The translations under genes were made by a program, and so were the position numbers. The notes below the pieces were generated by a model. It was given only the letters and a program-made list of their open reading frames with translations, was not told the origin of the DNA and searched no databases. Source: an uncultured Bacteroidales bacterium (GTDB taxonomy: Bacteria; Bacteroidota; Bacteroidia; Bacteroidales; Bacteroidaceae). Taken from it: a stretch of DNA of 36,600 nt. Below, piece by piece: positions 1,324-8,443 of the stretch (position 1 is its first letter; the number at the start of each line of letters is the position of its first letter). The stretch is from NCBI GenBank assembly GCA_902797255.1, contig CADBSN010000056.1:1-36600 (forward strand), given 5' to 3'.

Positions 1324-1887
1324 TTATTCATTCGGGCTGTCGCCAAGGAAGGTGTATTCGAAATTGGAACTTTTGGCTGATGGATACTGACTGCGTGGGT
1401 CGACATCCTGACGGTTGCGAAGGTGGTTGACCACGCGCTCGTAGCAGTCGAGGGCACTCTGTGCCTTGAGCTTGGCATGGAAGCGTGTGTCGAGGTACTG
1501 GAACTTATTGGTGTCCTTGATGGGTACTACGCGCTTGAACACGAGTACGGCATCGTACCATCCTGGATTCTCCTCGCCCATGATTTCAAGTACGGACTTC
1601 TTCTTCTCGGGCACATAGGTGCCTGCTGATTTCTGCTCATTGCGGAGGCGCTCCATCTCCTTGAACTCTTCGAGGGTTTGGGCCTCTGTCTTAAGGAAGA
1701 GGATGTAGTTGGAATAACCTACCTTGAGACGGTAAGGGTATTGATTGGTGGAGGTGTAGAAGCTGTTGACGCGATTGATGACATCGCCTGTGAGCTTCAG
1801 GTCTTTCACCGTTTCAAGAAATGCAACAACCTCGTCCATGTTGGTTGCTAATGCATCCTGTTCAAAATATCGAATGTATAAGTTCAT
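1324..1887 (-). CDS. Hypothetical cytoplasmic protein (187 aa, no recognisable domain)
   Basis: Long ATG-initiated ORF. A TAtcTTTG motif lies upstream and a hairpin downstream. The overlapping ORFs 1158..1478 and 1423..1629 are shorter or lie in repeat DNA. Confidence 0.7.
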   Translation of the reverse strand: MNLYIRYFEQDALATNMDEVVAFLETVKDLKLTGDVINRVNSFYTSTNQYPYRLKVGYSNYILFLKTEAQTLEEFKEMERLRNEQKSAGTYVPEKKKSVLEIMGEENPGWYDAVLVFKRVVPIKDTNKFQYLDTRFHAKLKAQSALDCYERVVNHLRNRQDVDPRSQYPSAKSSNFEYTFLGDSPNE

Positions 1888-2017: not shown

Positions 2018-2257
2018 AATTGATAATTGACAATTGATAAAAATGAAAAATCAAGAGTGAAAAATGAAAAATTAAGAGTGAAAAACGAAAAATTAAGAGT
2101 GAAAAACGAAAAATTAAAAGTGAAAAGTGAAAAATCAACAGCATAAATCATAAAAATATCAAAAATGCGATTAAGCCGAGCAAAAAAACAAATAAATTTG
2201 ATTTTTCTAGGCGTAGCATTTTGCGCATAGCGAATTATCAATTGTCAATTATCAATT
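2018..2257. repeat. Perfect 23-bp inverted repeat (aattgataattgacaattgataa, 2018-2040 and 2235-2257) enclosing 194 bp
   Basis: I derived the reverse complement by hand and the arms match exactly. The arms extend imperfectly to about 2011 and 2262. Confidence 0.85.
2045..2136. repeat. About 4.4 copies of a 21-bp tandem repeat (gaaaaattaagagtgaaaaac)
   Basis: Units at 2045, 2066, 2087 and 2108, with a partial unit at 2129. Lies inside the 23-bp inverted-repeat-bounded segment. Confidence 0.85.
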
Positions 2258-2362
2258 GTCAAAAACTTAGGAAAATGTAAAAATTTAAAAATGAAATAAT
2301 GTAATAATTAGGGGAAACAGCAAAAATAGTAAATAGTAAATGGTTAAATGGTAAATTATTTG

Positions 2363-2390: not shown

Positions 2391-4682
2391 ATGAAGACGA
2401 TCGATTGTTTTATTCCTTATAACGATGTGGAAACTGCGAAAAAGAATGTGGAGCAGTTCAAGGCATCGAACAATGTAAAACAGATTTTTTTGTTGGCTCA
2501 TGACCCTTCGCTGCCTCAGATTGAAGGGTGCAGCATGTTGTTTGTCGATACATTGGAGAGTTCGGCAACCCTGCGTCAGATGGCGCTGGTGGCGAAGTCG
2601 GACTATGTGGCAATCTATGGTAAGTTCTTGCCTATCAAGGTGGGTTATGGTGCGATTGACCGTGTGTTGCAGATTGCTGAGACGATGGATGCGGGTATGT
2701 TGTACAGCGACCACTATGCGATGAAGGACGGGGTGTTGACGAAGGCTCCTGTGATTGCCTATCAGAAGGGTAGTGTGCGTAACGACTTCGACTTCGGTTC
2801 GCTGCGTTTTGTGAAGACTGCGTTGTTCAAGGCTTGCGAGGAGCAGTATCGTGAGAGCCGATGGAAGGCTGCCGCTATGTATGAGCTGACTTTGTTTGTG
2901 AGCCGTCAGACGGAGCCTGTCTATTATATCAATGAATATCTCTACACGGAGGACGAGACAGACCTGAGGAAGAGTGGCGACAAGCAGTTCGACTATGTTG
3001 ACCCTCGCAACCGTGAAGTGCAGATTGAGATGGAGCAGGTGTGTACAGAGCATCTGAAACAGATTGATGCTTTCGTGGCAGCAGAGGATGTGACGGATCT
3101 TGCTGTGGGTGGCGGCTCGTTCCCCACGGAGGCTTCTGTGATTATCCCTGTGAAGAATAGGGCCAAGACGGTGGAGGATGCCATCATGTCGGCCATGTCG
3201 CAGCGGACGAACTTCGACTATAACATCATCGTGGTGGATAACCACTCGACGGACGGAACGACCGAAATCGTGAGCCGACTGGCGAACTATGATGCGCGTG
3301 TGATTCATATCGTCCCAGAGCGTGAAGATCTGGGTATCGGTGGCTGTTGGAACATGGCCATTCAGGACAAGCGTTGCGGACGCTTTGCCATTCAGTTGGA
3401 TTCGGATGACCTCTATTCGCGTGAATCGACCTTGCAGATGATTGTGGATAAGTTCTACAACGAACATTGTGCGATGGTGATTGGTTCGTACAGGATGTGT
3501 GACTTCAACTTGCGAACACTACCGCCCGGAACGATTGGCCACAAGGAATGGACGGCAGAGAACGGTAGGAATAATGCGTTGCGCATCAACGGATTAGGTG
3601 CACCAAGAGCGTTCTACACACCGCTGTTGCGACAGATTGGGGTGCCAAACACCAGCTATGGTGAGGACTATGCATTGGGACTTGCTTTCTCGCGTAAATA
3701 TAAAATAGGTAGAATCTTTGATGTGGTGTATCTTTGCCGTCGATGGGAAGGCAACTCTGATGCCGCCCTTTCGCCTGAACGCGTGAACCAGAACAACTAC
3801 TATAAGGATATGCTCCGCTCGTTGGAGATTACTTCGCGTCAGCAGATGAACCAATATTGGAAGGGTAGGGCCACTCAGCAGGATGTGGATGCTTTTTTCG
3901 AGCGTCAGCTGGCTGACTGGAAAGATGTGGAGGAGCGTTATCGTAACCTCGAGGTGCAGACGAAGACCTTCACCATCGGAGGGAAGATGCTGACCATTCA
4001 ACATAATCCTGCCCGTTTGGTATCGACCGGTGCGAAGATTGACAAGGCATCGATTCAGCAGCGTCCTTGTTTTCTCTGCGACATGAACCGTCCGACGGAA
4101 CAATACGGACTGGTGATGAACGAACGGTTCCAGCTGCTCATCAATCCGTTCCCCATCCTGAAACGGCATTTCACCATCACCTCGCGTCAGCATCAGTTGC
4201 AGCAGATACGACCGTCTTATGCGGATATGTTGGACTTTGCAGAGAGGCTCGATCGGCTGTTCGTGTTCTATAACGGTCCGCTTTGTGGTGCCTCAGCACC
4301 CGACCACATGCATTTCCAGGCAGGGCTGAAGGAACAGTTGCCTAAGACCTGTCTGAGCAAACATTTCGAAATCCGTGGGGCTTCGAAAGAGGAGATGGTA
4401 GAGCGCTTCAACAAGGTGTATGACAGCCTGCCTGTGGTGGGTGACGAGACCGAACCTCGCATGAATGTGCTGACTTGGAAGGAAGCAGATGAGTTTGTGA
4501 CACTCGTCATTCCTCGCACGAAACATCGTCCGGCATGTTATGAAGCCAAAGGCGAGGAGCAGATGCTGGTCAGTCCAGGAGCGTTGGATATGGCTGGATT
4601 GATGATTGTGCCCCGAACAGAAGATTTTAACCGCATCACTCCTGAGATAGCGGAGAACATCATAAAAGAATGTGGCGTATGA
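2391..4682 (+). CDS. Three-part fusion: N-terminal uncharacterised region, family-2 glycosyltransferase, and C-terminal DUF4922 / HIT-like (GDP-L-galactose or Ap4A phosphorylase-like) nucleotidyltransferase domain
   Basis: GT2 motifs: [16 protein letters not shown]...[12 protein letters not shown]...QLDSDDLY. C-terminus: [11 protein letters not shown]...RPCFLC...[13 protein letters not shown]...[10 protein letters not shown], with the HxHxQ motif at 4305-4319. Confidence 0.8.
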
Positions 4683-5983
4683 TGGAACCGGAAGTGAAAG
4701 TAGGAATCGTCCACGCCCAAAAGATACGACTCACCCTCAATGGTAGCTATACGGCTAAAGGAGAAACCGTAGACGGCCCTCAAGATGTGGCCTACGAAGA
4801 CGGTGGCATCCTTTGGAACGGGAATGTGTATCAGCGTCTGACATTCAAACCGCAGACGGATGATGCGTCGTTCTCGCTCTATGAGGTGACCATCGGAAAG
4901 GATTTCCATTGGGAACGGAAGGAAACGCAGACCTTCAGAGGCTTGTTGCAGTTTATTGTGGATGAAGGCCAGTTGTGTGCCATCAATATCCTGCCCGTAG
5001 AAGCTTATCTGGAGAGTGTCATCTCGTCGGAGATGAAAGCTACAGCTTCGTTGGAATTCCTAAAGGCGCATGCCGTGATTTCGCGTAGTTGGCTGATGGC
5101 CCAGATAGAGAAGCGTCAGAAAGCGGAGCAGGAGGAGCGTGATGCCTTCTTTTCTTTTAGGAAGACGGATACGGAACTGGTGAGATGGTACGACCGTGAG
5201 GACCATACATTGTATGATGTCTGTGCAGACGACCATTGTCAGCGCTATCAGGGTATTACGAAGGCAACCAGCGAGCAAGTGAAACAGGCCGTTGATGCCA
5301 CACGCGGTATTGTGTTGTATCATCAGGGTCAGATTTGTGATGCCCGATTCTCGAAGTGCTGTGGAGGTGTGTCGGAGGAATTCGGAACTTGTTGGGAAGA
5401 TGTTGACAAGCCTTACCTGAAAGCTGTTCGTGACGGAGCTGAGGATGCGGAATTGCCAGATTTGACGAATGAGGAAAACGCTCGGAAGTGGATTATGACG
5501 ATGCCTGATGCCTTCTGCAACACACAGAACAAGAAGATATTGTCGCAGATACTGAATAACTACGATCAGGAGACGGACGACTTCTATCGCTGGGCGCTGG
5601 AATATACGCCAGAAGAACTGAGTCGGCTCGTGGCCCAAAACCTAAAGGAGGACTTGGGCGAAGTGCTTGACCTCGTCCCACTCTCACGAGGGAAGTCGGG
5701 ACGCATCTACCGGCTTAAGATTGTGGGAACCAAGAAGAGTTATATCATCGGAAAAGAATTGGAGATACGTCGTGTGCTGTCTGACACCCATCTGTTCTCT
5801 TCTGCGTTCGTCGTCGATAAGCATTACGACCATTTCGTGTTGCACGGAGCAGGGTGGGGACATGGAGTCGGTCTCTGTCAGATTGGTGCAGCCGTGATGG
5901 GCGAGCAAGGTTATAGCTATAAACAAATCTTGCAGCACTACTATCCTGGCTCGTATCTGGCAACTGCATTAATGAATAATTGA
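4670..5983 (+). CDS. SpoIID/LytB-domain protein (peptidoglycan glycan-strand-cleaving / amidase-enhancer family)
   Basis: Motifs: [58 protein letters not shown]. The start overlaps the upstream stop. Alternative ATGs lie at 4679 and 4682. Confidence 0.85.
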
Positions 5984-6006
5984 TAATTAATAGATCGAAC
6001 ATCAAT

Positions 6007-7287
6007 ATGCTAAAAGATAAAATTAAAAAGCCTTTTGTGTGGGTTCCTACACTCTATTTCAGTGAGTCATTACCATTTTCGGCTGTGATGCTGATATCGG
6101 TCATTATGTTCAAGGATTTTGGACTGACCGACGGAGAAATCACGGTCTATACCGGATGGTTGGGACTACCCTGGGTGATTAAACCGCTATGGAGCCCGTT
6201 TATCGATAATTTCAAGACCAAACGCTGGTGGATTATATCGATGCAGTTCCTCATGGGAATCGCATTGGCTTGTGTGGCCTTCACCATTCCTACTGCCTAT
6301 TGGCTGCAGCTTACGTTGGCCTTCTTCATGTTGATTGCCTTTGCAAGTGCCACACATGATGTCTCAGCAGATGGTTTTTACATTATAGGCCTTTCGAATC
6401 GAGATCAGGAATTCTTTGTGGGAGTGCGTAACACCTTCTACCGTATCGGTATGGTAGTGGGTCAAGGGGTCTTGGTATCGCTTCAGGGACTCTTATCTCA
6501 TGGGTTGATGGACGTCGATGGTTTTCGTGAGACCCATAATGAGATATCGTGGGCCATCCTCTTTGTCGTGATAGCCTTGATGATGGCTTTGCTGGGCTTG
6601 TTCCATAGTTTCATGTTGCCAAAGATAGAAGTAGCCCTACACGAGGACTTCAACATCAAGACGCAGATGAAAGAGTTTTGGCAAACCTTAAAGGTGTTTG
6701 GTACCAAACCACATGTCATCACGGCCTTGCTGTTTATCCTCTTGTTCCGTTTGCCTGAAGGATTGCTGACGAAGATTGTGCCATTGTTCCTTACACGTGA
6801 CGTAGAGGACGGAGGACTGGGTATGAGCAACGTGGATTTCGGATTGATTTACGGTACGCTGGGTGTGATAGGGCTCTTGGCAGGAGGAATCGTAGGCGGC
6901 TGGGCCGTATCGAAATGGGGCCTGAAACGTTGTCTGTGGCCACTCGTGCTGTGTATCACGCTACCTGATGTGGTCTATGTGTACCTGAGCTATTTCCCAA
7001 CCGACCATATTTGGTTGACAGGAACCTGTGTGTGTATTGAACAGATAGGTTACGGCTTGGGATTTGCGGCATACACACTCTTCCTTGTTACGTTCTCACG
7101 TGGTGAACGCAGCACGGCAGTATTTGCAATCTGTACGGCTGGACAGTATCTGGGAGGTGTGATGTTGCCAGGAATGGTGTCGGGACTGATATCGGAGAAT
7201 GTCGGCTATCAGACCTTCTTCCTGATTGTGATGGCATTGTGTCTGGTCACATTTGCTGTCACAGCCTTGGTGAAAATAAAGGATTAG
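6007..7287 (+). CDS. ampG: AmpG-family MFS permease (muropeptide-type transporter)
   Basis: Multi-pass membrane protein. N-terminal AmpG-like motif: LGLPWVIKPLWSPFIDNFKTKRWWI. I prefer ATG 6007 over the TTG at 5980 given in the ORF track. Confidence 0.75.
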   Translation: MLKDKIKKPFVWVPTLYFSESLPFSAVMLISVIMFKDFGLTDGEITVYTGWLGLPWVIKPLWSPFIDNFKTKRWWIISMQFLMGIALACVAFTIPTAYWLQLTLAFFMLIAFASATHDVSADGFYIIGLSNRDQEFFVGVRNTFYRIGMVVGQGVLVSLQGLLSHGLMDVDGFRETHNEISWAILFVVIALMMALLGLFHSFMLPKIEVALHEDFNIKTQMKEFWQTLKVFGTKPHVITALLFILLFRLPEGLLTKIVPLFLTRDVEDGGLGMSNVDFGLIYGTLGVIGLLAGGIVGGWAVSKWGLKRCLWPLVLCITLPDVVYVYLSYFPTDHIWLTGTCVCIEQIGYGLGFAAYTLFLVTFSRGERSTAVFAICTAGQYLGGVMLPGMVSGLISENVGYQTFFLIVMALCLVTFAVTALVKIKD

Positions 7288-7595
7288 CGGAGACTTTTAC
7301 GCTTTTCCAACAATTTCTTGTTATAGACTTTCTCGACTCTGGTCACTTCCTTAGAGGTCATGATTTTGTTCTGCTGAACAGGGTCAAGGCCTTTGAGGGA
7401 TTTGTTGATGTCGCCAATCAGAATCTGAGAAGCCGATTTCAGCGAATTCTGTGATTTAGCGTTGTCAACACGTTCGATGGCATCGTTGAAACTCTTGATT
7501 ACTTTTTCCTGAGGAGTGGATGGGCTACAAGCCGTTAATACGAATGCCAGCCCAATGGTGGCACAGAACGAAACGAGGTGTCTGTAAGTCTTCAT
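7284..7595 (-). CDS. Small lipoprotein of unknown function
   Basis: Signal peptide with lipobox VLTAC. TAacTTTG lies upstream at 7656-7663 (- strand). The 3' end overlaps ampG by 4 nt, convergently. Confidence 0.65.
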   Translation of the reverse strand: MKTYRHLVSFCATIGLAFVLTACSPSTPQEKVIKSFNDAIERVDNAKSQNSLKSASQILIGDINKSLKGLDPVQQNKIMTSKEVTRVEKVYNKKLLEKRKSLR

Positions 7596-7828: not shown

Positions 7829-8443
7829 TTAGAGACCGAGTGACTTCTTTACATCATCGGCAGCCTTATCGATTGCTTCGTTAGCCTTTTGCTTCTGGGC
7901 TTCGATTGCTTCGTTAGCTTTCTGCTTCTGTGCCTCTACAGCCTCATTTGCCTTGTTTTCTGCCTCTTTCTTAGCGGCTTCTGTAGCATCTGCAGCTGCA
8001 TCAACAACTCCTTCTGCAGCATCTGTTGCGCTCTCTGCTACATCCAAAGGAAGATTTGCAGCTTTCTGTACGAGGTCAGCAATTGTCAATTCTGTAGATT
8101 CAGCAACAGTGGAGCTGATGGCTGTAACCTCTTCTTTGTTGGTTTCAAGGAAATCCTGAAGAGACTGCAGGTATTTCTGTGCAACCTCAACATTACCAGC
8201 ATTAATCAACGCTTGGATGCGTGCCTTGAATGCTTCGATAGAACTCTGGAGTGCTGGAGCATCTTTTGCCTCGACATCTGCAGTAATCTCCTCTATCAGT
8301 TCGTTGAGGTCTTCATCTACGATTGCTTCAACATCTGTTGATGTAGAATCTTGATCCGTGTTGGCAGATGTGCTTCCATTACATGCGCAGAAAGTGGCAG
8401 TAAATGCGATTGCCACAGCAACCATTACAATAATTTTCTTCAT
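7829..8443 (-). CDS. Lipoprotein, acidic Ala/Glu/Lys-rich and helical, with internal 11-aa repeats (EAIEAQKQKAN)
   Basis: Signal peptide and lipobox FCAC. A 33-bp DNA tandem repeat lies at about 7865-7950. TAttTTTG upstream at 8502-8509 (- strand). Confidence 0.75.
   Translation of the reverse strand: MKKIIVMVAVAIAFTATFCACNGSTSANTDQDSTSTDVEAIVDEDLNELIEEITADVEAKDAPALQSSIEAFKARIQALINAGNVEVAQKYLQSLQDFLETNKEEVTAISSTVAESTELTIADLVQKAANLPLDVAESATDAAEGVVDAAADATEAAKKEAENKANEAVEAQKQKANEAIEAQKQKANEAIDKAADDVKKSLGL

Follow-up and report, generated by a model that had tools for sequence, protein, structure and literature searches.

A GT-A/GT2/DUF4922 fusion enzyme beside a SpoIID/LytB homologue and an AmpG-like permease: a candidate Bacteroidota module for imported peptidoglycan sugars

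We consider three plus-strand genes in a 36,600-nucleotide stretch of DNA from an uncultured Bacteroidales bacterium (contig CADBSN010000056.1, positions 1 to 36,600 of the forward strand, assembly GCA_902797255.1); the whole stretch is called the window below. Gene 1 encodes a protein of 763 amino acids (aa) with a GT-A-like domain, a glycosyltransferase family 2 (GT2) domain and a DUF4922 domain; gene 2 encodes a SpoIID/LytB-domain protein, and gene 3 an AmpG-like permease of the major facilitator superfamily (MFS). Our best reading is that the three genes form a condensed variant of a module, conserved in Bacteroidota, that would handle imported peptidoglycan sugars inside the cell. The features are collected in Table 1.

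Table 1. Features of the three-gene locus and of the region upstream of it (positions in the window)
Feature	Position	Strand	Description	Basis
Gene 1	2391-4682	+	763 aa; GT-A-like, GT2 and DUF4922/HIT-GalT-like domains	Open reading frame, Pfam
N-terminal domain	2391-3125 (residues 1-245)	+	Predicted GT-A fold, degenerate DxD	AlphaFold, Foldseek, alignment
GT2 domain	3126-3857 (residues ~246-489)	+	QLDSDD at 3393-3410; YGEDY	Pfam PF00535
DUF4922 domain	3858-4679 (residues 490-763)	+	GalT/Apa2 branch of the HIT superfamily	Pfam, profile and fold searches
RPCFLC	4062-4079 (CFLC 4068-4079)	+		Motif check
DHMHFQ	4302-4319	+		Motif check
Gene 2	4670-5983	+	437 aa; SpoIID/LytB-domain protein without signal peptide	Open reading frame, Pfam, NCBIfam
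Catalytic-type Glu E121 in SSEM	5030-5032	+		Alignment with SpoIID 4rwr
CADDHC	5222-5239	+	Invariant cluster	Motif check
Gene 3	6007-7287 (ATG) or 5980-7287 (TTG)	+	426 or 435 aa; AmpG-like MFS permease	
28-nt inverted repeats	2013-2040 / 2235-2262	.	Arms 96% complementary and 194 nt apart; four 21-bp tandem repeats between them	

The coordinates of the reading frames agree with the tightly packed array described in the first-pass annotation, which had been made from the sequence alone. Genes 1 and 2 overlap by 13 nt, and 23 nt separate the stop of gene 2 (5983) from the ATG of gene 3 at 6007; the alternative TTG start at 5980 would instead give a 4-nt overlap. We considered that the split between genes 1 and 2 might be a frameshift artefact and rejected this, several distinct clusters at 77-99% identity being all exactly 763 aa long. 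The domain calls made at first pass (GT2, DUF4922, SpoIID/LytB and AmpG-like) hold in Pfam and NCBIfam profile searches, and the RPCFLC and HxHxQ motifs are where they had been placed, apart from a 3-nt slip: 4305-4319, given for DHMHFQ, covers HMHFQ alone.

The first 245 residues of the gene 1 product had been left unassigned. They have no Pfam match and no meaningful match by profile search in the Protein Data Bank (PDB), and a fold search was needed. Their AlphaFold model (32-sequence alignment, mean predicted local distance difference test, pLDDT, 89.7) has a GT-A fold; the Foldseek matches, at probability 1.0, include K4CP (2z86, E 8e-10), SpsA (1qg8, E 1e-9), WrtF and TarP. The DxD site is degenerate (YSDHY): in the alignment D107 alone is about 90% conserved, with N in two sequences, and the nucleotide/uracil-binding Asp after beta-2 is not conserved there. 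The domain keeps invariant motifs of its own, namely GSxRxDFDFG and a second one of 17 letters. The structure prediction makes residues 1-245 a GT-A domain, divergent and possibly non-catalytic.

The following domain looks active. Its PF00535 match (residues 249-382) scores 78.4 bits against a cut-off of 23.3, its mean column identity is 70% in homologues that are 50-90% identical overall, and QLDSDD and YGEDY are invariant in the alignment, which suggests glycosyl transfer from a nucleoside diphosphate (NDP) sugar as the predicted activity. The nearest solved structure is again K4CP, the Escherichia coli K4 chondroitin polymerase. Both GT-A domains have it as their best match by sequence and by fold; it shares their tandem architecture and carries an identical QLDSDD motif. 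The differences are that the first GT-A domain of the window protein has no conserved DxD, that this protein is fused to a HIT-type phosphorylase and that no capsule export locus is present here. A comparison of the N-terminal profile with the GT2 profile by hhalign aligned the overlapping boundary residues alone and has no bearing on internal duplication.

The C-terminal domain was proposed at first pass to be of the HIT/GalT type, and both profile and fold searches agree, each matching the Ap4A phosphorylase Apa2 of yeast and ADP-glucose phosphorylase. The DUF4922 match (residues 502-645) scores 204.2 bits against a cut-off of 23.6 (E 1e-60), with weak matches of the gene 1 protein to Ap4A_phos_N and ATP_transf. 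Over the HxHxQ region, a DUF4922 profile run against the PDB matches yeast Apa2 (E 6.5e-5). The domain model (pLDDT 89.7) has Apa2 as its best Foldseek match (E 3e-11, TM-score 0.55-0.60), followed by the Arabidopsis ADP-glucose phosphorylase At5g18200 and then by GalT and small HIT proteins; the similarity of fold is thus present, and the proposal is not refuted. In 29 aligned sequences H639-x-H641-x-Q643 is invariant, and so are the CxxC and two further His residues. The GDP-hexose phosphorylases of plants and animals carry the Pfam annotation DUF4922 as well. With VTC2/GDPGP1 (GDP-L-galactose/GDP-D-glucose phosphorylase), Apa2, At5g18200 and GalT the domain shares the HxHxQ motif, and with GalT the CxxC; it differs from them in sequence (12-15% identity) and in being fused to glycosyltransferase domains and, in relatives, also to SpoIID. 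The conserved motifs and the model suggest phosphorolysis or transfer of an NDP-sugar as its predicted activity. A literature search on bacterial DUF4922, or on an anhydroMurNAc phosphorylase in Bacteroidetes (MurNAc, N-acetylmuramic acid), found no characterisation, in line with the earlier remark that the chemistry of the fusion enzyme is undescribed. As a separate observation, the clade of 763-aa proteins lacks an insert of 30-60 residues directly after HxHxQ (window 4320-4400, residues ~644-670) that is present in stand-alone DUF4922 proteins and in 830-aa fusions; the domain of the 763-aa clade still models confidently.

The gene 2 product matches TIGR02669 (SpoIID/LytB) with 181.3 bits against a cut-off of 83.3 and the Pfam SpoIID family with 86 bits; it falls short of the SpoIID equivalog TIGR02870 (132 bits against a cut-off of 235). 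The Glu of its SSEM motif aligns with ASEM of Bacillus anthracis SpoIID (4rwr) and is invariant in the SpoIID alignment. Thus, it resembles the lytic transglycosylase SpoIID of Bacillus and Clostridioides in the domain model, the SSEM Glu, the Cys/His cluster and the conserved C-terminal GWGHGVG motif. It departs from SpoIID in an extra N-terminal region of about 100 aa, an insert of about 80 aa and the lack of a signal peptide or membrane anchor, and so it cannot act on the sacculus. Neither the gene 2 protein nor six stand-alone orthologues from distant genomes have a hydrophobic N-terminus, and an upstream extension in the gene 2 frame is impossible. The gene 1 protein likewise has neither a signal peptide nor a transmembrane (TM) segment.

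The SpoIID/LytB protein is predicted to be cytoplasmic, because it has no export signal and because its relatives carry it as an in-frame fusion behind cytoplasmic domains. If it is intracellular, as its sequence indicates, it must therefore act on soluble imported substrates. The first-pass view of this protein as a cleaver of wall glycan strands is not borne out by a protein that lacks an export signal and is fused in most Prevotella relatives. A literature search for a cytoplasmic SpoIID found no characterising paper. The prediction of a complex between the DUF4922 domain and the SpoIID protein from alignments gave a score of 0.00, which counts neither way.

A survey of relatives encoded in genomes, covering the 80 best loci (nearly all from Prevotella, Segatella, Paraprevotella or Leyella), revealed the fusions; these loci are mutual relatives, and the counts describe one clade rather than independent events. 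At least 54 of the 80 have GT-A+GT2, DUF4922 and SpoIID in a single open frame, about 7 have DUF4922 fused to SpoIID with GT-A+GT2 separate, about 9 are arranged as in the window, and about 8 are fully split. GT2 and DUF4922 are accordingly found both split and fused, which answers a question raised at first pass. Nine inspected four-domain proteins (1230-1331 aa) all keep DSDD, HxHxQ and SEM, and none of the nine has a signal peptide or a TM-like segment (maximum Kyte-Doolittle value for a 19-mer 1.5, against 2.8 in AmpG). Wherever the contig extends, an AmpG-like gene follows the module in these 80 loci, sometimes two in tandem. The order GT-A+GT2, DUF4922, SpoIID, AmpG occurs in more than 70 loci and agrees with the published gtf-gtf-lytB-ampG. 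Three metagenomic contigs with fused homologues (51-67% identity) show the order fusion, SpoIID, (extra MFS-like gene), MFS. Co-conservation of the three genes, proposed at first pass, is therefore seen in both Prevotella-group and metagenomic loci, and we presume that the 763-aa enzyme and the SpoIID homologue probably work as one physical unit. Two tandem AmpG-like MFS genes follow the module in many Prevotella-group loci (L062:11608-14435, L056, L066, L023:12045-14772, L024:11731-14320), the first of them being so divergent that it has no Pfam match in L023 and L024.

Beyond this clade, DUF4922 is present in 36 of the 201 genomes of a phylum-wide sample, mostly as a stand-alone frame of about 335 aa. 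Of 20 distant Bacteroidota loci, 17 have it immediately behind a GT-A+GT2 gene of about 488 aa, often with overlapping stop and start, and in several families SpoIID and/or AmpG adjoin this pair. Also encoded nearby are a sugar kinase of the BadF/MurK type, a fusion of GH3 with beta-lactamase, a GT4 and an Amidase_3 protein. A search with the DUF4922 profile yields 2225 clusters at 50% identity, of which 983 have E<=1e-30, in stand-alone, N-terminal, C-terminal and four-domain architectures, and the 763-aa fusion has more than 8000 near-length homologues among 90% clusters. Some variants deserve mention in their own right. One family has the cluster order SpoIID, GT4, (GT-A+GT2), DUF4922 (L004:7360-10849, L010:7331-10852, L019:6295-11242); in L004 and L010 no GT-A+GT2 gene lies within 20 kb, and GT4 takes its place. 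At L005 (G185:C6:147000-166999) DUF4922 stands alone, with no GT-A+GT2, SpoIID or AmpG within 10 kb on either side, and the SpoIID-like and AmpG-like orthologues of that genome are located elsewhere. Ten DUF4922 proteins of 440-590 aa (P0131, P0136, P0158, P0162, P0170, P0171, P0216, P0237, P0241 and P0252) have 120-280 extra residues at the N- or C-terminus and represent further architectures of the family.

The gene 3 product passes the Pfam cut-off for MFS_1, and its best NCBIfam matches are AmpG models. The cluster of AmpG, LytB and glycosyltransferases in Tannerella forsythia, mentioned at first pass, does exist: Tanf_08345-08370 encode a 'xanthan lyase', gtf, gtf, lytB, ampG and ybbC/namZ1, are co-transcribed with murTKQ and are activated by GppX (PMC5388701). 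TfAmpG (Tanf_08365) imports GlcNAc-MurNAc and GlcNAc-anhMurNAc (GlcNAc, N-acetylglucosamine; anhMurNAc, anhydroMurNAc), and the same source says of the functions of the two gtf genes, Tanf_08350 and Tanf_08355, that they 'are unknown', and calls LytB only 'putative' (bioRxiv 10.1101/2021.12.02.470905). In the T. forsythia literature the fate of the imported anhMurNAc is described as unknown, AnmK being missing. The window shares with the ampG/MurNAc-scavenging operon Tanf_08345-08385 (PMC5388701; PMC7670621) the order glycosyltransferase(s)-lytB-ampG; it differs in having one 763-aa fusion in place of two 'gtf' genes and in lacking xanthan-lyase-like, namZ, murT, murK and murQ genes at the locus. 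The gene order of the window matches that of the published co-transcribed operon, and the window is its three-domain-fusion variant; orthology rests on published gene order and syntenic loci rather than on sequence comparison. The gene 3 product is proposed to carry GlcNAc-(anh)MurNAc, as its T. forsythia counterpart does.

The canonical recycling enzymes were sought in the genome of the window, which is 80% complete, and in five cultured Prevotella-group genomes carrying the module (P. histicola T05-04, S. buccae ATCC 33574, P. pallens ATCC 700821, P. multiformis DSM 16608 and X. caecicola). In the former, AnmK, a BadF-type/murK-type kinase and NamZ were not found, and MurQ had no match above the cut-off; in the five cultured genomes neither AnmK nor MurQ scored above it. 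No NagZ-type GH3 above the cut-off was found in the window genome or in four of the five cultured ones, P. pallens and P. multiformis having no such match at all. This suggests that in the Prevotella group AmpG is conserved with no recognisable downstream enzyme except the module. We did not find the SpoIID fusions, the GT-A N-terminus or the absence of NagZ, AnmK and MurQ from Prevotella in the literature searched.

We believe it somewhat probable that the module processes the imported AmpG cargo, peptidoglycan disaccharides, in the cytoplasm; its substrates, direction and chemistry are what we infer. The AmpG-type permease would bring GlcNAc-MurNAc or GlcNAc-1,6-anhydroMurNAc into the cell, as in T. 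forsythia, and the 763-aa enzyme and the SpoIID/LytB homologue would act on the disaccharide there. A lytic transglycosylase interconverts a glycoside and a 1,6-anhydro bond, a GT2 enzyme a glycoside and an NDP-sugar, and an HxHxQ phosphorylase NDP-sugar plus phosphate and NDP plus sugar-1-phosphate. All these types of catalysis are roughly isoenergetic at the anomeric carbon, and interconversion without ATP is therefore possible. The most likely function would be an ATP-sparing conversion to NDP- or 1-phospho-sugars for wall synthesis or central metabolism, and the module would stand in for the NagZ/AnmK/MurQ route. GT2 with NDP would cleave GlcNAc-beta-1,4-(anh)MurNAc, giving (anh)MurNAc and NDP-GlcNAc; the SpoIID domain would open the anhydro ring by the lytic-transglycosylase reaction in reverse, onto phosphate or an acceptor and independently of AnmK; and the HxHxQ domain would exchange sugar-1-phosphate and NDP-sugar, recycling the NDP needed by GT2. 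In its full form, an ATP-independent, energy-conserving scheme that keeps both glycosidic-type bonds of GlcNAc-1,6-anhydroMurNAc, this chemistry is tentative and, in our opinion, rather unlikely. The opposite, synthetic direction, closer to the first-pass proposal in which the sugar is re-activated and then re-transferred, is plausible.

Several points weigh against the processing of imported cargo by the module. The absences in the window genome are soft at 80% completeness. AnmK is present in 14 of the 33 sampled DUF4922-positive genomes and in 119 of the 165 others, and a large family lacks both; AnmK co-occurring with the module in those 14 genomes, the module is therefore not a simple substitute for AnmK. 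Strict non-orthologous displacement of AnmK was accordingly dropped, there being no clean complementarity and the kin not being independent. In one family (f28) the GT/DUF4922 pair is unlinked to SpoIID or AmpG, full-length SpoIID-like and AmpG-like orthologues being elsewhere in the genome in all five genomes checked. The TIGR00901 AmpG score of gene 3, 153.6 bits (E 6e-45), is well below the cut-off of 350. The N-terminal GT-A domain, judged by its missing DxD and uracil-binding Asp, may be non-catalytic. Physiological reversal of GT2 is uncommon. Finally, an older paper termed the T. forsythia operon 'glycosylation related' (PMC5388701).

This last point leads to a biosynthetic alternative, in which GT-A/GT2 would build an oligosaccharide or glycoconjugate in the cytoplasm from an NDP-sugar supplied or edited by DUF4922, the SpoIID-like protein would trim it, and the MFS permease would export it. 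For both GT-A domains the nearest relative of solved structure is indeed a two-domain polymerase, K4CP, GT4 joins the cluster in some genomes, and a gppX mutant of T. forsythia, whose operon once bore the glycosylation label, affects S-layer glycoproteins (PMC5388701). We nevertheless consider a glycan-building role quite unlikely, considering that TfAmpG imports disaccharides, that the neighbours elsewhere are peptidoglycan-catabolic (kinase, GH3, amidase), that a lipid-carrier transferase, a flippase and a polymerase are absent from the cluster, and that the DxD of the N-terminal GT-A domain is degenerate.

The inclusion of GDP-hexose phosphorylases in Pfam DUF4922, and the GT/DUF4922 pair that stands alone in f28, would suit a control of the NDP-sugar pool, in which a GDPGP1/VTC2-like DUF4922 removes or interconverts an NDP-sugar and, together with GT2, tunes UDP-GlcNAc/UDP-MurNAc levels, and the link to AmpG is co-regulation only; however, the in-frame SpoIID fusion and the invariable AmpG neighbour in Prevotella loci would then be left unexplained, and we regard such a role as very improbable. 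It is also tempting to propose a sensor or regulator, by analogy with AmpG-dependent beta-lactamase induction: the SpoIID-like and GT-A-like domains would merely bind imported muropeptides, and the complex would signal wall damage. In other bacteria the cargo of AmpG is known to act as a signal in the cytoplasm (PMC5388701), and the N-terminal GT-A domain is degenerate; but even distant relatives keep the catalytic residues of GT2, DUF4922 and SpoIID without change, and a DNA-binding or signalling output domain is absent, and we can give this proposal hardly any credence. Cytoplasmic processing of the imported disaccharides is the reading that we prefer.

As to transcription, RNA libraries from bovine and sheep gut contain short contigs that match each of the three genes at 95-100% identity. 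One contig spans the junction of genes 1 and 2 (4512-4777) and another that of genes 2 and 3 (5892-6124), which is compatible with transcription across the junctions. Such contigs tell neither the strand nor the level nor whether one transcript covers the genes, and DNA may have been carried over; they lend weak support to co-transcription of the three genes in this organism. Genes on the opposite strand bound the operon on both sides, making it a three-gene unit in the window; the flanking frames 1324-1887 (-), 7284-7595 (-) and 7829-8443 (-) have no Pfam match. The inverted-repeat element sits just upstream, in the promoter region of the operon, and its membership in the system is uncertain. 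In the RNA-library contigs its arms are very high-copy with many loose ends, and three RNA runs join 2034-2037 to 2233-2234 with different letters between; the arms look like a dispersed repeat with a strain-variable inner cassette. No recombinase gene is evident next to the inverted repeats.

To our knowledge, peptidoglycan recycling downstream of AmpG is textbook matter only for Proteobacteria (NagZ, AmpD, AnmK, MurQ or AmgK/MurU), and the most abundant bacteria of the gut, rumen and mouth include Prevotella, Bacteroides and Tannerella. The conserved and often fused GT-A/GT2/HIT-phosphorylase/SpoIID module beside AmpG, predicted to be cytoplasmic and carried as two proteins by this rumen Prevotella-like bacterium, is the best candidate for the reuse of imported wall sugars. 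If this is true, a SpoIID-type enzyme would have its first intracellular role, and a domain of the GDP-hexose-phosphorylase type would gain a new use. In the full energy-conserving scheme, wall fragments would re-enter synthesis as activated sugars without kinases, and the use of anhydro-muropeptides by Bacteroidales that lack AnmK, such as T. forsythia and Prevotella, would be explained. The pathway bears on a periodontal pathogen that is auxotrophic for MurNAc and on the gut pool of immunoactive muropeptides.

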